Assembly (NCBI GenBank): GCA_963790475.1
Contig: CAWBOS010000010.1
Coordinates: 1,954,945-2,018,944 of the forward strand
Direction: 5' to 3'
From: an uncultured delta proteobacterium
Lineage (GTDB): Bacteria > Desulfobacterota > RBG-13-43-22
DNA length: 64,000 bases
Positions 2,075 to 10,729 of the stretch are shown here, piece after piece (within the stretch, counting starts at the first letter, position 1; the number at the start of each line of letters is the position of its first letter). The notes beneath the pieces are model-generated. The model was not told the DNA's origin. It worked only from the letters and a program-made list of their open reading frames with translations, and did no database searches. Made by a program: the position numbers and the translations under genes.

Positions 2075-2253
2075 CACATAGGGAGTTCAATCCAGGATCT
2101 ATCTACAACATCGGATTCAATGTCCGCGAACGGCATCAATCGAAAACAAATCAGGACAATGGTCTAAACCGAATGCGATTTGAAGCGAGTACGGAGTCGG
2201 GCAAAGTTGGGTTTGCGGAGGTAGACACCTCTGTAGCCTTAGGCCGTGGATGA
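2071..2253 (+). pseudogene. Short ORF carrying a duplicated copy of the kinase N-terminus
   Basis: NQDNGLNRMRFEASTESG..GFAEVDTSVALGRG also occurs inside the 2250-4451 protein. Confidence 0.55.
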
Positions 2254-2728
2254 GCACTCAAGAAGAAATCGTTCATTACAGAAACTTAGCCGAGACAGGT
2301 GATGCGGCCGCCCAATGCCGATTGGGCTGGATGTATCAAAATGGTAAAGGTGTTCCAATGAACTATGTCGAGGCTTTGAAATGGTTTCGCAAGGCGGCTA
2401 TTCAGGGGAATACGGATGCCCAGAACAACCTTGGAAGGATGTATCAACATGGTAAGGGAGTTCCACAGAGCGATACTGAAGCCATGAAGTGGTATCATAA
2501 GGCGGCTGTTCAGGGGAATACGGATGCCCAGAACAACTGGAAGAAGATGAAAGCCGAAAGTATTAAAGTAGACAAACCTGAAAGTGAGCCACTTGTTACC
2601 AAAGAACTACCTACCCAAAATTTTCCAAATCAGGACAATGGTCTAAACCGAATGCGATTTGAAGCGAGTACGGAGTCGGGCAGCCTTGGGTTTGCGGAGG
2701 TAGACACCTCTGTAGCCTTAGGCCGTGG
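2147..2728. repeat. 103-bp direct repeat pair (2147-2249 and 2626-2728) flanking the Sel1 module
   Basis: The copies are identical except aag vs gcc (3 nt) and are offset by 479 bp. Confidence 0.92.
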
Positions 2729-4451
2729 TGGCGTTGCCGTGATTCACCCGGCGATGTTTGATGGTAACTCGTGCGCGGCGAAGATCTTTAACTCCAATCG
2801 AGTGGTAAATGCGGACAAGATTATGGCAATGATTGCCAATCCGCCAGATTCCTTATGGATCACTGTTGGGACCAGGACGTATCCGAAGTACGGGTGGCCG
2901 ACATCACTTCTAAGAAGTCCGCAGGGTCCGCCGGTAGGGTTTTTGATGCCAGTCGTGGACCAGACCGAGTCCTTTACGTTTGACTGTTACTACGACAAGA
3001 CCCTGATTAAGAAGCTGGAGTCGCCAGAGGAGGTTGCGCTTTCGTTCAAGCTGGAGATCGCAAGTAATCTCAGCAGGTCGGTATCAGAGCTGCATAAGCA
3101 TGGCCACTACTTCATCGATCTGAAGCCGCAGAACATACGTGTCTTCAGGCGAACCCATATCGTTACGCTGATCGATTGCGATGGCTTTTCAATTCAAGGG
3201 ATAGAGAAACGGTTTCCTGCCGAAATGCTCTCAGCGGATTACATTGCGCCCGAGGCATATCGAGGCAACATCTATCCGCAGAACCTATCGGAGCCTCAGG
3301 ATCGCTATGCCCTTGCGGTCATCCTGTTCCAATTGCTAAATGGGGGGACGCATCCGTTCCAAGGCATCGTAACTGACGCAAACATATCGGCCAACACCAA
3401 CGATGAGAAGGCGGCCGCTGGTCTCTATCCCCATGGCTTGACGCCGAACCCACGGATCCTACCGCGCCCGCAAAGCATTCACTCATGCTTTGATGACGAG
3501 ACGCGGAGTCTTTTCGACCTATCATTTACCGGAACCCAGTCAGAACGACCGTCGGCGGAGAAATGGGCTCAGCATTTCAAAAGACTGCTTGATGACAAAG
3601 CGCTTGTAAGGTGCGATGGTCACCCTTTCGACATACGTCACATGCGTTTTCAGGGGAAGACGTGTCCCACCTGCCATTTAGAGATCATCTCTCGGCAAAG
3701 AACGCGTGTTTTACCAGGCACGGCCACCATCAAGCCGACACCGACAACAAAACCAGTAAGACTATCGGCTACGGATTCAACTGGGGGCTTTAAGCTTATA
3801 GGAGGGGTTATGGGATTTATCCTAATAATGCTCTTCATAATTGGGCTCAATATGAACTCCCCGAAATCAATACCACCGCGACCACCAGCCCAGGAACAAA
3901 TGGCTCCGGAGCCAGCACCAGCCCCAGCTCCAGCCCGAGAAGAAATGGCCACAATGCCAGCACCAGCACCAAGTGAAACTGGATTTAATAACACCAACCA
4001 ATACTATTCTTGGGAAAACCCGTGGACGAAACTTCATGCCTTAATGAACACCAAATGGAAACATTCAATTCAAACTGATAAAATAGGCGGGGAGCTTCAC
4101 ATCTTCAGCGGACAGGATACCCGTACTTTCGTCACTATTTCTGTTGAGCAAAGAAGTGGTTTGTCTCTGAGCGATTATGTAAGAGGGTTCCAGAAGAGCG
4201 ACTCTGGTTCAAAAATAAGTTTCACGGACGGAGGGAGACTTTTTAATAATAAGGGGGGGGGACAAACCTGGCAAGGCTCAGGAGTCTGGGTTGAAAAATA
4301 CACGGGCTATGGCATAAATATCCAAATTACTCAAGTTGGTTCTGCGTTTTGGCGGGTCGTATCCGGTAAAGAAATACCGTATGACGAGACTGGAGCCGAT
4401 GATAAACAGAATCAAATGATTCAAAATGCCTTATGGGACACTATTAGATGA
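2250..4451 (+). CDS. Sel1-repeat + YegI-like Ser/Thr kinase with transmembrane segment, Pro/Ala linker and extracytoplasmic domain
   Basis: Sel1 repeats (AQCRLGWMYQNGKGV, AQNNLGRMYQHGKGV). Kinase motifs LGRGG, AAKIF, DLKPQN, LIDCDGF, YIAPE, GTHPF. Hydrophobic segment LIGGVMGFILIMLFIIGL. Confidence 0.88.
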   Translation: MSTQEEIVHYRNLAETGDAAAQCRLGWMYQNGKGVPMNYVEALKWFRKAAIQGNTDAQNNLGRMYQHGKGVPQSDTEAMKWYHKAAVQGNTDAQNNWKKMKAESIKVDKPESEPLVTKELPTQNFPNQDNGLNRMRFEASTESGSLGFAEVDTSVALGRGGVAVIHPAMFDGNSCAAKIFNSNRVVNADKIMAMIANPPDSLWITVGTRTYPKYGWPTSLLRSPQGPPVGFLMPVVDQTESFTFDCYYDKTLIKKLESPEEVALSFKLEIASNLSRSVSELHKHGHYFIDLKPQNIRVFRRTHIVTLIDCDGFSIQGIEKRFPAEMLSADYIAPEAYRGNIYPQNLSEPQDRYALAVILFQLLNGGTHPFQGIVTDANISANTNDEKAAAGLYPHGLTPNPRILPRPQSIHSCFDDETRSLFDLSFTGTQSERPSAEKWAQHFKRLLDDKALVRCDGHPFDIRHMRFQGKTCPTCHLEIISRQRTRVLPGTATIKPTPTTKPVRLSATDSTGGFKLIGGVMGFILIMLFIIGLNMNSPKSIPPRPPAQEQMAPEPAPAPAPAREEMATMPAPAPSETGFNNTNQYYSWENPWTKLHALMNTKWKHSIQTDKIGGELHIFSGQDTRTFVTISVEQRSGLSLSDYVRGFQKSDSGSKISFTDGGRLFNNKGGGQTWQGSGVWVEKYTGYGINIQITQVGSAFWRVVSGKEIPYDETGADDKQNQMIQNALWDTIR

Positions 4452-4570
4452 CAGGAAACCTTGGGGGATGGGGTTCCATGAACGGTGAATGAATATCAGG
4501 CTTTTGTTAGCAAATGGAATCGGCACATTCGTCCTCTGAGATAGAAAAAGGGTGGTTTCTAAGAATTATC

Positions 4571-4599
4571 TTGACAATTTTTAACCCATAGGTTATATT
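4571..4599 (+). promoter_or_regulatory. sigma70 promoter
   Basis: TTGACA-17 bp-TATATT immediately upstream of the riboswitch. Confidence 0.75.
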
Positions 4600-4604
4600 A
4601 CCAC

Positions 4605-4712
4605 CCAACATGACGAGTGGCGGAGGGTAAAATCCCTACTGCCCGGCAACCTGATCCGTAAAGGTGCTTAGTCACTTAAAAGAGTGGCCATGAGGTCGAA
4701 AGACAAACGGTT
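4605..4712 (+). ncRNA. SAM-I/IV-type riboswitch aptamer
   Basis: P1 CAUG/CAUG, J1/2 ACGAG, SAM core GGCAACC...AAGGUGCU, P4 GUCAC/GUGGC, P5 GUC-GAAA-GAC. The 3' ACGG can pair with L3 CCGU (PK2). Confidence 0.8.
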
Positions 4713-4715
4713 TTT

Positions 4716-4742
4716 GAGACCTCACCTTTGCGTGAGGTTTTT
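4716..4742 (+). terminator. Riboswitch expression-platform terminator
   Basis: AGACCTCAC-CTTTGC-GTGAGGTTT followed by a U tract. Its 5' arm GACCTCA can alternatively pair with TGAGGTC (4691-4697) as an antiterminator. Confidence 0.7.
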
Positions 4743-4904
4743 GCGTTTTAAGGGCGGAAAAATTCACTTCTTGTCATTACCAAAAGGAGGTGAGATCGAC
4801 AAAAAAATGATAATTAGCTCGACATAGATAATATAGGTTTGTGGGGGGATTTGTTGCTATTGCAGCCCCACGTTAAAAAACAATTTGCTAAAATGCTGGC
4901 GGAG

Positions 4905-4943
4905 AAGACCTGGGGCTGACATTTAGCTTCCAGGTTTTTTTTT
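4905..4943 (+). terminator. Probable intrinsic terminator
   Basis: AAGACCTGG...CCAGGTTTT stem running into a T9 tract. Confidence 0.55.
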
Positions 4944-4968
4944 GCCCCGAGATTGGAGGTTAACAAAG

Positions 4969-5559
4969 ATGGAAAAGAAGAAAAGAAATAAACTCACTCA
5001 GTTTAAAGAGTTCGACCCGATGATCTGGAAGAAACTTGGAGTTAATCCGACGGTCATGAAGTCGGCCACAATCACTGTATATTCCAAAAATCCACCCCTA
5101 TATGTAATTGAAAGCATCAAACGTCAAAAGGCCGTCAGTGCTTTCAGGGAGGCCCAGGAGAACTGGCAGAAGATGAATCGTGATTACCCGGCCACCCTTG
5201 AAGACCATTTGGCCCTGGAAGACCTGATCGCTGAATCGAATGGGATCGTATGTGCCTTCTTCATTGAGGGGGCCTTGATTATAGGGATAGACCCTTCCTG
5301 CTATCATGATGTGGAGTTTGGAAACTTTCTATCTTATTTCGATAGGGACTTTCATTACCGGTTCAGGATCATTTGCACCCCTGCCCCGGCTCCTTTAACC
5401 ATTGAGGACGGTGAACGGCTCCTGGAGTCTTTGGAAGAGTGTGATCGAAACTTTGAAGAAATGATGAATAAAAGGTCCGCTTCAATAAACCAAGGAATTT
5501 CGGAAATGGGGTTGGACCGAAATGATATTCCTGACCTCTTAAATGAGGAGGAGGAATAG
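4969..5559 (+). CDS. Hypothetical protein
   Basis: ORF with GGAGG RBS, 2 nt from the next gene. No recognised motif. Confidence 0.65.
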   Translation: MEKKKRNKLTQFKEFDPMIWKKLGVNPTVMKSATITVYSKNPPLYVIESIKRQKAVSAFREAQENWQKMNRDYPATLEDHLALEDLIAESNGIVCAFFIEGALIIGIDPSCYHDVEFGNFLSYFDRDFHYRFRIICTPAPAPLTIEDGERLLESLEECDRNFEEMMNKRSASINQGISEMGLDRNDIPDLLNEEEE

Positions 5560-5561
5560 TC

Positions 5562-6488
5562 ATGGGAAACGATAAGATCCAGGGGTGCCTACTTGGCGTA
5601 GCCATAGGGGACGCACTCGGAGCCCCCTTTGAAGGAAAGGATCCCGGTGCTGTAAGTCGCAAGGTCAAATCTGACAATGGTCGCATAAAGGATTTCTACC
5701 CTTTCTTCGGCGGACTCGGGACCTGGACTGACGATACGGGCATGACCCTGGCCGTCTGTAGAGCCTTCATAAAACATGAAAGAACCAGAAAATCTATGGA
5801 ATCTTGTTTCCGGGGGGCTTTTTACAACTGGATCAATTCCGATGAAAGCCGGGGTTCGGGAAGAACAGTAACCTACGCCGCTAAACATGGAGTCGCCGAC
5901 CTAAATTCTTGGAGTTCGGGGGCACTCATGAGAACTTCGCCTGTTTCGATCTATGCCTATCAGAAAGGCTACACTACTCACCAGGCGGCCGATCTCGCTT
6001 ACTGGGTAGCCTCCCTTAGCCATGGGCATCCCCAAGCTACTTTCCCCCCCGTGGAATTTACCCTGGCCCTATTGTCGATTTTTCGTAAGGAAAGGAGTGT
6101 ACCCGTTTACCTTGACGATCCCGAGGCCCTGGTGACCCAACAGGACCCCGATCAGGAAGATCGGCGGAAGGACTATAAACGATTACGGCACTGGCAGGCC
6201 GACGACCTGGACCCGACAACAGGACTCTCCATTTGGAAGAAGGTTTTTGAAGACTGCTTGGGGTTAAAGCCTGGAGTTCCCTGGAGCAGACTACCGGACT
6301 TTGAAGAAGGTATTCTAAAGGCCGTTAATGAATGCCTTGACCGCGATACTGCCGGGGCTGTTGCCGGTGCCATCCTTGGGGCTAAGTGGGGTATTCGGGG
6401 GATTCCTCAGAAATGGAAGACCCGAGTGGAAAAAAGTGAAACCATAATAGGGCTGGCGAATGACTTGATACAAGCCGCTCAGGAATAA
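5562..6488 (+). CDS. ADP-ribosylglycohydrolase family protein (DraG/Tri1-like)
   Basis: GCLLGVAIGDALGAPFE, WTDDT, GALMR and DRDTAGAVAGAILGA motifs. Confidence 0.92.
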   Translation: MGNDKIQGCLLGVAIGDALGAPFEGKDPGAVSRKVKSDNGRIKDFYPFFGGLGTWTDDTGMTLAVCRAFIKHERTRKSMESCFRGAFYNWINSDESRGSGRTVTYAAKHGVADLNSWSSGALMRTSPVSIYAYQKGYTTHQAADLAYWVASLSHGHPQATFPPVEFTLALLSIFRKERSVPVYLDDPEALVTQQDPDQEDRRKDYKRLRHWQADDLDPTTGLSIWKKVFEDCLGLKPGVPWSRLPDFEEGILKAVNECLDRDTAGAVAGAILGAKWGIRGIPQKWKTRVEKSETIIGLANDLIQAAQE

Positions 6489-6499
6489 AGGAGGCTGCA

Positions 6500-7018
6500 A
6501 TGTCCGATGTAAATTTGGTTGTCACCCGGATCCGGGAAACACTTTCCGGAGAAACGAAGATAGCTTTTCTTAAAGCCCTGAATGAGGCCAAACAGGGATC
6601 TACAATGTTGTCATCGGGTGACTGGGAGGGATGCCTGACCCATTTGATGCGGGCTCATGATCTATTAACTAACATCCCTGAGGCGGCACCTATCCTGGGT
6701 ATGGTTAGCCAAGACCTGGCCGCTGCATTCGGCAATCTCGATAGACTCACCGAAGCATCGAAGTTTGCTCAGGACGCCATTCGGTTGGTAAAGGGAATTA
6801 AGGAACTGGCTTTCACCGAAGCGATGGCTCAAATGACCATCGGGAACGTCTGCTACAGTAGAGGAAATGGACTGGAAGGATCACAGTATTTTGCTTCGGC
6901 AAGAAACCTGCTCAAGGATCGACCGGGCTCGGAACAGATCTTGCGGGATCTCGACCAGAATGAAGCGAGGCTAAGGGCTAATCTGTCAATGCCCAGACAT
7001 GGCCCTCACTTCTGCTAA
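6500..7018 (+). CDS. TPR-like helical-repeat hypothetical protein
   Basis: AGGAGG RBS and a TPR-like Ala/Leu/Gly periodicity. Confidence 0.6.
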   Translation: MSDVNLVVTRIRETLSGETKIAFLKALNEAKQGSTMLSSGDWEGCLTHLMRAHDLLTNIPEAAPILGMVSQDLAAAFGNLDRLTEASKFAQDAIRLVKGIKELAFTEAMAQMTIGNVCYSRGNGLEGSQYFASARNLLKDRPGSEQILRDLDQNEARLRANLSMPRHGPHFC

Positions 7019-7392
7019 GAAAGGCAACCGCAGAGGCTCCTGACAATTTGAGAGTTAGGGACCGGTGTAGGACTCGTATCCGGGTAAACCAGAATTCAGA
7101 TTTTGAAACACTGTATACTCTCCAAATCGATAAACAATCTTCAGTGGAGGGGGTTTAGCTTAGTGCTGCGATTCGTGAGTTAACCGGCCGTCCTCTTTCG
7201 GATACCGCATTCATCGTTCGAGAGGCTTTACGACTGGCGGTGAAGATCAGGAAAGATAAGTTTGACAATATCTGTGTGGCTCAGAGTTTGAAGGCTTTGA
7301 CGGGTAAAGGTGATGGGGGATGTCAGGGGGGCCAGACGATATTGATTCTCTCATCGTTATTTATTAAAAAAACTTGTTAGAAGGAGGCTGAG

Positions 7393-8187
7393 ATGTCTTA
7401 TGTATTCGACCTGTCAAAAACGTCCAAGAAAGAGGGAGCAGTGGATATAGCTTCCCCGACTTCTAAGACCCAGGCTGCACCGGTTCCCTATACCGAACCG
7501 ACGACCGGCATCGAAATGGTTTTGGTCAAAGGCGGATGTTATCCGATGGGTGATACCTTTGGGGATGGAATTCCTGCTATTGAGAAGCCGGTCCATGAGG
7601 TCTGTGTGGATGATTTCTATCTCGGGAAATATCCAGTAACCCAGGGTCAGTGGAAGGCCGTCATGGGGAATAATCCTTCAGCTTTTCAGAACGGGGACAA
7701 TTACCCGGTGGAGCAAATAAACTGGGATGATGCTCAGAATTTTATCGGTAAGCTGAATGACATAACCGGGAAAAGGTATCGCCTGCCCACGGAAGCCGAG
7801 TGGGAGTACGCCGCCCGGAGCCGGGGGAAGAAAGAAAAATGGGCCGGGACCAGCAACGAATCAGGGCTAATGAAGTTTGCCTGGTACAGGAGAAACGCGA
7901 GAGGGAAGACCCACCCGGTAGGAAGGAAGCGGCCGAACGGCCTGGGTTTGTATGACATGAGCGGCAATGTCTGTGAATGGGTTCAGGACACGTTTAGTGA
8001 GGACGCTTATAGCTCACATTCAGGGATGAATCCCGTCATAGAGGGTGGTGTCTACTGCGTGTTGCGTGGCGGTTCCTGGAACTTTGATGCCGATGGTATA
8101 CGCCTTGCCAGTCGAGCCTGGCTCCCGCCCGGAAGCCGCAATGAAATCCTTAACCAAATCGGCTTTCGTGTTGCCAGGGATCTTTAG
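7393..8187 (+). CDS. Formylglycine-generating-enzyme (FGE-sulfatase/SUMF1) domain protein
   Basis: PVHEV, YPVTQGQW, RLPTEAEWEYAAR, NGLGLYDMSGNVCEW, VLRGGSW and IGFRVA motifs. Confidence 0.92.
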   Translation: MSYVFDLSKTSKKEGAVDIASPTSKTQAAPVPYTEPTTGIEMVLVKGGCYPMGDTFGDGIPAIEKPVHEVCVDDFYLGKYPVTQGQWKAVMGNNPSAFQNGDNYPVEQINWDDAQNFIGKLNDITGKRYRLPTEAEWEYAARSRGKKEKWAGTSNESGLMKFAWYRRNARGKTHPVGRKRPNGLGLYDMSGNVCEWVQDTFSEDAYSSHSGMNPVIEGGVYCVLRGGSWNFDADGIRLASRAWLPPGSRNEILNQIGFRVARDL

Positions 8188-8752
8188 TCTCACACCCGCA
8201 TGGTTGTTGATTCCTGACCGCAGTGCACCTCTCCTGAGGCCGTGGTCACCTAAATGGACCCTAATCAGGAGGATCATGAGAGTGTCCCTGAACGCTGAAA
8301 GGGCCAGAACGAAAAGCCTTGTAGTATCATTACCTTGTACAATCAAACGATCATCGACACTATAAAGAATCGATGAAGATAAGATAATAGAAAGATTGAA
8401 AAGTTGATCAAAAGGCTACCCGAGAAGGGATATGGTTAGGATGAGTGGAATCTATTCGTATTTTTTACGTAAAATGTATGCTTATTCTTCACTCCTGAGT
8501 TCCATATAAGCAGAGTTTGGATGCGAATAAATATGGACACAAGTGTATATACTTTTTGTCAATTCGTAAGAAGTCGGTATTAACCTATGGGAGGGGAGAT
8601 AGAGGAGAATCCGTAAAAAGCGGATATAGCAATTGTACCTGTCGTAACCGAAAATAACCTAATGTAACCCAACATAATCCAACTTGCCTTTTACAACTGG
8701 TTGATATTTAACTACTTAATTTTTGATGGGAAATCGCCTAAGTAGTTTTTTC

Positions 8753-8810
8753 GACTTAAAATCCCTCGGTCCTCGCGGCTGTACCGGTTCGATTCCGGTC
8801 CCAGGCACCA
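8753..8810 (+). tRNA. 3' half of tRNA-Leu(TAA); duplicated att site ending an integrated element
   Basis: GACTTAAAATC anticodon loop, long variable arm, GGTTCGATTCC T-arm and CCA end. The D-arm and 5' acceptor strand are absent, replaced by AT-rich sequence. Confidence 0.85.
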
Positions 8811-8828
8811 GTTATTATTAGGTAATTT

Positions 8829-9863: not shown

Positions 9864-10729
9864 ATGAATAATTCACCAAAACTTCATTATGGAACACCGG
9901 AGGAGGCTGGGATGTTAGCCGCGCGTATCGAAAGAGTCAAACAGCTCGCCGAAGGTTGGGTGGCGGAAGGTCAGACCCCTTCTCTGGTCATACTGGCGGC
10001 CAGAAAAGGAATTATTTTCTTGCATGAAGCTTATGGCCGGCTAACACCCGAAGGTCATTCACCGCCGCTTCTGATCGACTCTGTTTTCCCCATGGGTCCC
10101 CTGACCAAACCGGTTACAGCCACAGCGGCCATGATTCTGGTGGAGGACGGCCTGTTGGGGCTGAACCGTCCCGTGGTCGATTATATTCCTGAGATCTGTG
10201 GCAAGGGAGCAAAATCCGTTCAGGTCCACCACCTGCTTTCCCATACCTCCGGTTATCAAGAAAAGAGCTTGCTTAGTTTGGCGATAGAAAATGAAGGGGA
10301 AAAGTATGAGTTGGGTTCGGCGGTATGTTCTCCACAGCTATGGATATGGCTATTTTCGGCCAGATGTTCCTAAACGGTGGCCGGTATGGTGATCAACGCA
10401 TCTTAAGCAGGCTCGCTGTCTTGGAGATGACCCGAAACCAGATCCCGGGGATTGGAACTAATTGGTGGGGAATCTTTGTACCTGAGGCCTCCTGGGGTTA
10501 TGGCTGGTCAGTGGCTGGCGATATTAAATGGAGGTATTTTTTGGGAAGTCTACGTTCGCCAAAAACGTTCGTGCACACCGGCGCCGGTGGAACCCGTCTA
10601 TTTGCAGATCCCGTGAATGAGATCCTGCTGGTTTACTTTTCTGTGGTGCTTGAAGTCACACCGTTAGAAGAAAAGAAAAACAACGCCGATCTCTTTGAAA
10701 ATGCGATCTACGCCTCTATTAAGGAATAA
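9864..10729 (+). pseudogene. Serine hydrolase (beta-lactamase class C-like), split by deletion/frameshift
   Basis: N-terminal part has PLTKPVTA (SxxK Ser missing) and HLLSHTSG. C-terminal part in another frame has GGMFSTAMD and FVHTGAGG. The junction is near 10310 and the central part is missing. Confidence 0.75.

Follow-up and report, generated by a model that had tools for sequence, protein, structure and literature searches.

Two candidate SAM riboswitches of unrelated classes arranged in series upstream of an ADP-ribosylglycohydrolase-family gene in a mobile gene cassette

Riboswitches for S-adenosylmethionine (SAM) are feedback regulators of methionine, cysteine and SAM genes. In the 64,000-nt stretch of an uncultured deltaproteobacterial genome analysed here (hereafter the window), positions 4571-4968 read as the 5' leader of an operon that would carry two complete transcriptional OFF riboswitches in series, built on aptamers of unrelated classes, i.e. 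one of the SAM-I clan and one of the SAM-II type. The two probably act as serial SAM-dependent transcription terminators, and the genes that follow would be expressed only when both aptamers are empty. These genes belong to a cassette shared with a congener and located in a genomic island. They encode an orphan protein (P0001), an ADP-ribosylglycohydrolase-family protein (ARH), a TPR protein and a protein of the formylglycine-generating enzyme (FGE)-sulfatase superfamily. No methionine, cysteine, SAM or methyltransferase gene was found behind the leader in any copy. The aptamer classes and their tandem arrangement are known already, and the novelty lies in the gene association and in the mobile-cassette setting. 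The features of the leader, all on the + strand, are as follows.

4571..4599: sigma-70-type promoter TTGACA-17-TATATT, 11 of 12 consensus matches
4603..4720: aptamer of riboswitch 1, SAM-I clan, best model SAM-I/IV (RF01725, 37.2 bits, E 2.5e-4)
4691..4724: antiterminator 1, UGAGGUC (4691-4697) with GACCUCA (4718-4724)
4716..4749: intrinsic terminator 1, a 10-bp stem (4716-4741) and a U-rich tail
4784..4793 and 4807..4827: spacer elements read from the sequence, a purine-rich Shine-Dalgarno (SD)-like block AAGGAGGTGA and a 6-codon mini open reading frame (ORF)
4831..4912: aptamer of riboswitch 2, a SAM-II-type H-type pseudoknot (RF00521, 21.8 bits, E 0.015)
4887..4927: antiterminator 2, the aptamer tail with the 3' side of the upper stem of terminator 2 and the loop
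4908..4943: intrinsic terminator 2, a stem (4908-4935) and nine U (4935-4943)

In the mechanism proposed for riboswitch 1, bound SAM would let helix P1 hold UGAGGUC, and terminator 1 would form. Without SAM, UGAGGUC would pair with GACCUCA and terminator 1 would be blocked. In riboswitch 2, bound SAM would keep the tail GCUAAAA in the P2 triplex and terminator 2 would form, while the tail of the empty aptamer would pair with the 3' side of the upper stem of terminator 2. With both aptamers empty, the polymerase would reach the ribosome-binding site (RBS) at 4955, the P0001, ARH and TPR genes and probably the FGE-like gene. Serial switches of this kind would give a steep ON response at low SAM. 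A first-pass annotation made from the sequence alone had already proposed a near-consensus sigma70 promoter, a SAM-I/IV-like aptamer with an altered P1 and a terminator/antiterminator switch that is ON at low SAM, and all three proposals are supported by the features listed. The same annotation had considered that a second hairpin weakened the link to the downstream genes. This hairpin is the terminator of the SAM-II-type riboswitch, provided with an antiterminator tail, which would make the link between leader and genes doubly gated, not broken.

Three full leader sequences could be compared: that of the genome itself (G000, a 6.34-Mb assembly with the window on contig C10), that of a congener (G003) and that of a metagenome contig (L023). 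The aptamers were assigned with Rfam covariance models, whose gathering scores are 41.1 bits for RF01725 (SAM-I/IV), 44.4 bits for RF00162 (SAM-I) and 36 bits for RF00521 (SAM-II). In the whole-genome scans 150 of 158 candidates were scored for RF01725, 150 of 519 for RF00162 and 150 of 1031 for RF00521. Among the candidates scored, site 1 is the only match to RF01725 and the only match to RF00162 at E<=1 in the 6.34-Mb genome, and site 2 ranks first among 19 RF00521 matches at E<=10, ahead of one with 16.2 bits (E 1.07). On one strand, about 110 nt separate the RF01725 site from the RF00521 site, a coincidence that neither E-value captures. The pair recurs in both homologs. The G003 leader scores 43.3 bits with RF00162, just below the gathering score, and 21.7 bits with RF00521 about 140 nt downstream. 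L023 scores 47.6 bits with RF01725, above the gathering score, and 20.8 bits with RF00521. The RF01726 model (SAM-II long loop) overlaps the RF00521 site of the window (17.2 bits, E 1.7). With RF01826 (SAM-V) no match was obtained in 4400-5100 (E<=10) or in the genome (E<=1, 150 candidates scored), and RF00634 and RF02885 gave none in the genome (150 candidates scored each). RF01727 and RF01057 were equally blank (150 scored), as they were in control genomes, so that these two blanks say little. No SAM family reaches the gathering level in the Rfam scan of the 64-kb window. The only match that does so there corresponds to group II intron domains D1-D4 (RF02003, 53612-53752, - strand, 78.9 bits, E 1.3e-15).

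Helix pairing was examined by script in each of the three leaders. MAFFT alignments of the leaders were not structure-consistent and were set aside as a basis for covariation. All listed pairs of P1, the P2 core, P3 and P4 of aptamer 1 are canonical in the three homologs. P1 reads CAUG/CAUG (4609-4612/4689-4692) at all three loci; of the Rfam consensus pairs, A-U and U-A are retained and the closing one is flipped. The P2 core is GGCG(G)/(C)CGCC. The inner part of P3 is an invariant CCU/AGG and its outer pair is G-U, G-C or A-U across the loci. The upper-case consensus blocks of Rfam, i.e. GAG after P1, GCAACC and AGGUGC, are kept in three of three aptamers. The SAM-I/IV family is matched by the P1-P2-P3 core, including the conserved blocks of the junction and of P3, and by a 3-bp hairpin GUC/GAC located 3' of P1 (4695-4704; counterpart confirmed in G003). 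A P4-like hairpin is also present between P3 and the 3' strand of P1 (4671-4688). It has 7 bp in G000 and L023, between which a C-G pair is replaced by A-U, and 3 bp in G003. This hairpin is an insertion in the SAM-I/IV model and is read as P4 by the SAM-I model in G003, and the four-way junction P1-P4 that characterizes SAM-I is found at all three loci. The form of P2 varies from a simple hairpin in L023 to a longer helix with an internal loop in G000, where an inner stem AGGG/CCCU extends it, and to a full SAM-I P2 alignment in G003. In the available portion of its description, SAM-I/IV is defined as lacking a P2 internal loop (PMC2864571). The G000 aptamer departs from the family on this point and in having a stem between P3 and the 3' strand of P1. 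Because the P2 forms differ and this extra hairpin is present, aptamer 1 is intermediate between the SAM-I and SAM-I/IV families. A pseudoknot of the P3 loop, either with a conserved ACGG block (CCGU/ACGG) or with the GGUC just after P1, is possible.

In the expression platform of riboswitch 1, antiterminator 1 overlaps both the 3' strand of P1 and the 5' strand of terminator 1, and its second G-flanked pair is A-U in G000, U-G in G003 and G-U in L023. Terminator 1 keeps its 10 pairs, with upper pairs that read UCAC/GUGA, GCCC/GGGC and UCCC/GGGG across the loci. When the segment from the 3' strand of P1 to the 5' half of the terminator is folded, antiterminator 1 is the minimum free energy (MFE) structure in all three leaders, and adding the 3' half of the terminator shifts the fold to the terminator. 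By standard logic this arrangement would be an OFF switch. Between P1 and terminator 1, the block GACAAACGGUUU-N-UGAGAC (4700-4715) is identical in G000, G003 and L023. The conservation of the GACAAACGGUUU block exceeds the need of the listed helices; the related metagenome run X2, described below, has an A>G change at 4707.

According to the part of the literature available on the SAM-II/V fold, it comprises P1, a U-rich third strand, a descending P2 strand continuous with P1, linker adenines that dock on P1 and an ascending 3' tail, one U of which pairs with the adenine of SAM; SAM-II riboswitches are mostly transcriptional (PMC6061858). This H-type pseudoknot architecture is found in the three leaders. 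P1 of aptamer 2, GUGGG(G)/(C)CCCAC (4841-4846/4866-4871 in the window), has 6, 5 and 5 bp at the three loci. In each of them the third strand contains AUUUG (4849-4853 in the window), the descending strand ends with UUGC, an A-rich linker follows and the tail starts with GCUAA. The tail of the window reads GCUAAAAUG (4887-4895). In the pseudoknot helix P2, 6 of 7 pairs are canonical in G000, 7 of 8 in G003 and 7 of 8 in L023, the U of GCU being left unpaired. The lower stem of terminator 2 is G+C-rich and reads ACCUGG/CCAGGU in G000 and ACCCGC/GCGGGU in G003 and L023, and its upper stem is GCUGA/UUAGC. The aptamer tail can replace GCUGA, and the resulting helix is topologically incompatible with the lower stem of terminator 2. 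This antiterminator pairs at 8 of 8 positions in G000, at 12 of 12 in G003 and at 11 of 12 in L023, the sequences differing beyond the GCUAA core. For the nascent transcripts of G003 and L023 it is the MFE structure. Paired changes were found in the outer P3, P4, antiterminator 1, terminators 1 and 2 and antiterminator 2. The leader as a whole (4603-4946) reaches -111.6 kcal/mol, whereas 100 dinucleotide shuffles average -91.5 (z -3.53) and none of them folds as well.

The spacer between the two riboswitches holds the other elements pointed out in the first-pass annotation, i.e. the SD-like block near 4785 and the short ORF, which were located together with the second hairpin. The ORF starts 16 nt behind the GGAGG of the SD-like block. 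A purine-rich GGAAGGAG-type block is common to the three leaders, and in the MFE fold the SD-like block of G000 is paired with 4764-4772. The mini-ORF is not conserved: it has 6 codons in G000 and 3 codons in L023, and none comparable occurs in G003.

When the DNA of 61 relatives was searched, the G003 leader was the one real match (E 6.1e-10; positions 4638-4755 at 72% identity). L023 is the one true homolog among 11 stretches returned by a scan of metagenome contigs for an exact 19-nt conserved block; the other 10 were tRNAs or held nothing relevant. G000, G003 and L023 become similar from the -35 box onwards, and this box and the spacing of the promoter are kept in both homologous leaders. 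DNA searches detected the tandem leader in 2 of the 21 genomes from the order/family. In a phylum sample of 401 genomes they detected it in 1, the match listed being G000 alone, with G003 absent from the rows listed. ARH orthologs (E<=1e-20) are present in 2 of 21 family genomes, the same two that carry the tandem leader, and in 1 of 401 genomes of the phylum sample. A search for ARH in a collection of genome contigs gave only one remote match (26% identity). Weak RF00162 matches were also obtained in G004, G015 and G010. Only that of G015 reappeared in a focused scan (E 0.94) and none has a SAM-II partner. Short DNA matches in G004 and G053 were rejected as no riboswitch lies there. Viral contigs searched with three DNA patterns and two protein queries yielded no relative.

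Additionally, contigs of four metagenome runs were mapped onto positions 4500-5700. Runs X2 and X4 contain relatives at about 90% identity over the leader and P0001, and in X2 also over the start of ARH, on separate contigs. One X2 contig, 7,767 nt long, covers 4570-4904 with 27 substitutions and 7 gaps and terminates within the leader; another of 708 nt covers 4875-5584, and two more start at 5555. In X4, shorter pieces span 4559-5448. Upstream of about 4559-4570, the X2 and X4 contigs turn to unrelated sequence as loose ends, at the point where the similarity among the loci starts.

Four genes follow the leader on the + strand.

RBS 4955-4959, ATG 4969, to 5559: P0001, 196 aa, orphan family
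5562..6488: ARH, 308 aa, ADP-ribosylglycohydrolase family (PF03747, E 7.4e-41)
6500..7018: TPR protein, 172 aa (TPR_12, 29.6 bits, just under the cut-off of 30.1)
7393..8187: FGE-like protein, 264 aa, FGE-sulfatase superfamily (PF03781, E 4e-46)

Terminator 2 ends at 4943, and the RBS (GGAGG) and the ATG lie 12-26 nt behind it. The genes are tightly spaced, with a stop at 5559 before an ATG at 5562 and a stop at 6488 before an ATG at 6500; the FGE-like gene comes after a gap of 375 nt behind the TPR gene. A consensus-site scan of 4300-8400 detected no further promoter-like site on the + strand from 4599 to 8400. Co-transcription of the four genes from the leader promoter is thus predicted. The observation of the first-pass annotation that hypothetical, ARH and TPR genes follow the leader in place of a sulfur-metabolism gene holds. 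The survey of genes downstream of homologous aptamers which it had recommended gave the same picture, accessory genes recurring in every copy. In G003 the leader runs straight into an ARH that a frameshift interrupts and that continues as a fusion with an IetA-like AAA+ domain; TPR and FGE-like homologs follow. Behind the L023 leader lie a 64-aa ORF, a P0001 homolog and, where the contig ends, the beginning of another gene.

The start of P0001 is supported by the conserved N-terminus of its relatives, which are few: 4 proteins among 5.8 billion in a word-index search and 9 representatives among 1.84 billion in a profile search. P0001 matches no Pfam, NCBIfam or PADLOC family. Its AlphaFold model is poor (mean pLDDT 59.8), the best structural match (Z 6.3) corresponds to a generic small alpha/beta arrangement, and the ESM Atlas gave no usable match. 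ARH aligns over its full length to solved members of its family and keeps the GDALG-P-E, WTDDT and DRDT blocks. Other PF03747 proteins are DraG, Tri1 and ARH3, and orthology with the first two is excluded by scores of 60.2 bits (DraG, cut-off 337) and 72.7 bits (Tri1, cut-off 490). ARH is part of a distinct metagenomic subfamily comprising at least 76 clusters (P0016-P0091; 37-92% identity), the next relatives being at most 33% identical. Natural fusions in metagenomic proteins tie these families together. P0020 consists of a P0001-like domain (residues 1-185; hhalign 100%, E 9.4e-51) followed by an ARH domain (224-497), and P0009 has TPR repeats followed by a P0001-like domain. Other fusions of the ARH subfamily involve AAA+ (the G003 protein) and SNase (P0087). 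Among the ARH forms, several of about 480 aa are extended at the C-terminus by roughly 170 unassigned residues; the suggestion that this extension is TPR-like was dropped after one comparison (P0057 vs P0014) showed no likeness.

Catalytic FGE carries a cysteine pair behind an RGGS-type motif. In the FGE-like protein, the C-terminal part RGGSWNFDADGIRLASRAW has no cysteine behind its RGGSW motif. For this reason the protein appears not to be a catalytic formylglycine-generating enzyme. Its best NCBIfam matches are far below their cut-offs. In conflict systems FGS domains are treated as non-enzymatic binders, according to the portion available of Kaur et al. 2020 (PMC7159879). The hypothesis that the protein is the target of a diversity-generating retroelement was rejected, as no template repeat was found by blastn of 7951-8200 against the whole genome: apart from the query itself, this search returned two short matches, one of 40 nt in a paralog with 65% identity and one of 29 nt on contig C6 (86%, E 0.35). 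The paralog (65% identity, 226 aa) is located about 210 kb upstream, at G000:C10:1751724-1752389. P0001, ARH and the TPR protein have no paralog in their own genome. The TPR and FGE-like genes start alike, with a 24-nt repeat (6488-6511 and 7381-7404 in G000) that spans the RBS and the first four codons (MS-x-V). The G003 counterpart is a 77-nt repeat with 86% identity (L015, the stretch of G003:C48 that carries the G003 copy of the cassette, 6672-6748 and 7275-7351). This suggests a duplication of an intergenic or translation-initiation segment within the cassette.

The limits of the cassette and of the island that surrounds it could be placed in the window as follows, both on the + strand.

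4570..8481: cassette shared with G003, about 3.9 kb; right end from blastn segments, left end (about 4559-4570) from metagenome contigs
8753..8820: direct repeat of the 3' part of tRNA-Leu(UAA), distal end of the island; 68 nt, 97% identical to C10:1942840-1942907

The cassette is a mosaic. Its TPR-FGE half is 86-90% identical between G000 and G003 (86% DNA identity for the TPR gene; 89.7% DNA identity and 87% protein identity over 150 aligned residues for the FGE-like gene), the ARH proteins are 55% identical, and the leader is 72% identical over the best-conserved 118 nt. The source of the direct repeat overlaps the tRNA-Leu(UAA) gene at C10:1942810-1942897, about 20.9 kb upstream. The integrase beside this tRNA is a 152-aa fragment (23.1 bits against a Pfam cut-off of 27.1). 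A tRNA, a 3' repeat and an integrase thus mark a tRNA-integrated island. Besides the decayed integrase, the island of about 20.9 kb holds an O-methyltransferase, an FMN reductase, a PEP-CTERM protein, a DUF72 protein, a family-B DNA polymerase and an RDD protein. Beyond its distal end, the ORFs 9864-10373 and 10325-10729 (+ strand) match the N- and C-terminal parts of Beta-lactamase PF00144 and look like one gene split by a frameshift. In G003, the cassette belongs to an element of about 8.6 kb at tRNA-Leu(CAG), with an integrase, a MerR-type protein and a D5-type primase; its orientation to the tRNA is opposite to that in G000, and no attachment-site repeat was found in this element.

The first-pass annotation had described the surroundings as a defence-type island. 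The island part of this description is confirmed by the tRNA-Leu repeat. The defence part is not backed by PADLOC-DB 2.0, which gave no family for P0001, ARH or the FGE-like protein, one weak match for the TPR protein (E 0.0034), and a resemblance of the AAA+ part of the G003 fusion to IetA (E 3.4e-18). Directly upstream of the leader, and still inside the island, are genes for a vWA protein (201-887), a PP2C phosphatase (866-2074) and a Sel1-repeat protein kinase (2250-4451), all on the + strand, and the kinase resembles PD-T4-6 defence kinases (PADLOC-DB 2.0, E 1.2e-10). Kinase, PP2C and vWA are linked in actinobacterial GAP1-N2 conflict systems, as far as the available portion of the survey goes (Kaur et al. 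2020, PMC7159879). This trio lies outside the cassette that G000 and G003 have in common. Given the PADLOC result for P0001, ARH and the FGE-like protein, the word 'defence' describes the context and is not a family assignment.

Several observations weigh against two functional SAM riboswitches in series. The covariance-model check proposed in the first-pass annotation did return a SAM-I/IV match in the window, yet its 37.2 bits fall short of the gathering score, and the same site scores 22.8 bits with RF00162, also below gathering. The RF00521 scores of the three loci are about 15 bits under theirs. With only three full leaders available, two of which (G003 and L023) are nearly identical in riboswitch 2, few covariations could be counted; the inner P3 and P1 of either aptamer are invariant, which is uninformative either way. 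The tail of aptamer 2 has GCUAAG in G003 and L023, a G replacing the A of G000 and of the Rfam consensus. This position would contact the amino-acid end of SAM, according to our own mapping onto the SAM-V numbering of the available portion of PMC6061858. In G000, the MFE structure of the nascent transcript differs from antiterminator 2 and pairs the 3' strand of P1, CAGCCCCA, with UGGGGCUG of terminator 2. With either antiterminator, the unliganded aptamer 2 is predicted to oppose terminator 2 and the folded pseudoknot to permit it. Finally, the ARH, TPR and FGE-like copies of G003 (L015 5987-9030, - strand) are each broken into several ORFs, which may reflect assembly indel errors or a decaying cassette.

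The low RF00521 scores and the invariant P1, which leaves this helix without covariation support, are what one would expect if there were one riboswitch only and 4831-4912 formed an ordinary terminator or attenuator hairpin whose SAM-II likeness is due to chance or to decay. The homology of the three loci also means that their RF00521 matches are not independent. Against this, the best RF00521 match of a 6.34-Mb genome adjoins its only SAM-I-clan match, the AUUUG, UUGC and GCUAA blocks, the A-rich linker and a feasible pseudoknot are kept at all three loci, and the tail doubles as an antiterminator strand with nearly complete pairing despite differing sequences. The order SAM-I/IV then SAM-II is moreover documented elsewhere, in the part of PMC9481103 available. 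A single riboswitch is on these grounds considered unlikely. It is distinctly unlikely that the ligand has changed, one or both aptamers sensing a SAM derivative or another adenosine compound tied to the substrate of ARH. Sub-threshold scores for both aptamers, a gene association unlike any SAM regulon and the G in the tails of G003 and L023 would agree with such a change, and rare SAM-I variants that reject SAM and bind spermidine have been described in the accessible part of PMC10853860. However, SAM is the shared known ligand of two unrelated classes and a joint change would be needed; aptamer 1 keeps its consensus blocks and the A-U and U-A pairs of P1 in three of three loci, and G000 keeps the GCUAAA tail.

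The main product could also be a small RNA, the terminated leaders (about 140 and 335 nt) acting in trans and downstream control being secondary. Two strong terminators, a conserved spacer and the strong conservation of GACAAACGGUUU beyond what the listed helices need would suit this idea, and terminated SAM-II leaders acting as small RNAs are described in the available portion of PMC9373788. The position of the RBS and ATG so close behind terminator 2 and the constant association of the leader with the same genes make it very improbable. The first-pass annotation had further envisaged that the regulated gene had been deleted. The leader would then be a relic left after the loss of a methionine or methyltransferase gene, with no regulation, for which the lack of a sulfur or SAM gene downstream and the sub-threshold aptamer score of the window could be adduced. 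This view is already contradicted by the present data and is hardly credible: leader and cassette occur together in G000, G003 and L023 despite different flanks and opposite tRNA orientation, the same leader precedes P0001/ARH genes in these three contexts, the relatives at about 90% identity in runs X2 and X4 span the leader, P0001 and, in X2, the start of ARH, the expression-platform helices show compensatory changes, and no copy is followed by a met-type gene. Two serial SAM-dependent terminators therefore remain the probable reading of the leader.

Tandem SAM riboswitches have been described before. In the available portion of the survey by Sherlock et al. (2022, RNA Biol, PMC9481103), the order SAM-I/IV then SAM-II is represented by 2 examples and the reverse order by 7, and tandems for the same ligand are predicted to give a steeper, 'pseudo-cooperative' response. 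These tandems share with the present leader the two classes, their order, apparently an expression platform for each aptamer and the expected 'pseudo-cooperative' or bi-mechanism OFF system. The present loci may be among the 2 examples reported there. They differ from the tandems as presented in this portion by the P4-like hairpin inside aptamer 1 and by genes that are not sulfur or SAM genes. The SAM-II/SAM-V tandem of 'Candidatus Pelagibacter ubique' and marine relatives also has two SAM aptamers per leader, the first with an intrinsic terminator; its second switch controls the RBS and its genes are sulfur/SAM genes, whereas both platforms are terminators here (PMC9481103, PMC6061858, available portions). 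Taken alone, aptamer 1 shares with SAM-I (S box) and SAM-I/IV riboswitches the P1-P2-P3 core with its consensus blocks and the OFF terminator/antiterminator logic, and differs from them in a P2 that varies among three homologs and in the extra P3/P1 hairpin. The spermidine-sensing SAM-I variants likewise combine a SAM-I-like aptamer with atypical genes. As presented in the accessible part of their description, they have changed ligand-contact regions and polyamine genes, in contrast with the conserved consensus and the second SAM-class aptamer found here (Salvail et al. 2023, PMC10853860). Literature searches found no paper joining a SAM riboswitch with an ADP-ribosylglycohydrolase. The combination of ADP-ribosylglycohydrolase and FGE-sulfatase gave only unrelated papers, judged by title, and no SAM riboswitch on defence or island genes was found, judged by titles and abstract starts.

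The proposal of the first-pass annotation that SAM depletion induces the island genes fits the architecture of the leader. What such an induction would serve can be suggested only tentatively. The cassette may be a conflict or defence module released when the SAM pool collapses, e.g. through a phage SAM-degrading enzyme; this is possible rather than probable. A response to methionine or sulfur starvation, or to stationary phase, is a comparably tentative explanation. A more specific and rather doubtful version of the former would make the tandem an RNA guard of the SAM pool. Phage destruction of SAM (e.g. by a SAM lyase that allows escape from methylation-dependent restriction) would in that case derepress a mobile effector cassette with an immune or abortive role. 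The question whether SAM depletion, by starvation or by phage SAM-degrading enzymes, turns the cassette on can be put to the test.

For genome scans, the locus suggests that adjacent sub-threshold matches to two families with the same ligand can validate each other. It also shows features of SAM-I and SAM-I/IV mixed within close homologs. Overall, a double SAM switch of two unrelated classes sits in a horizontally moving cassette without an evident role in SAM metabolism. If the switches work as proposed, SAM would be used as a cell-state signal for an accessory, possibly conflict-related function, which would widen the known range of riboswitch targets.

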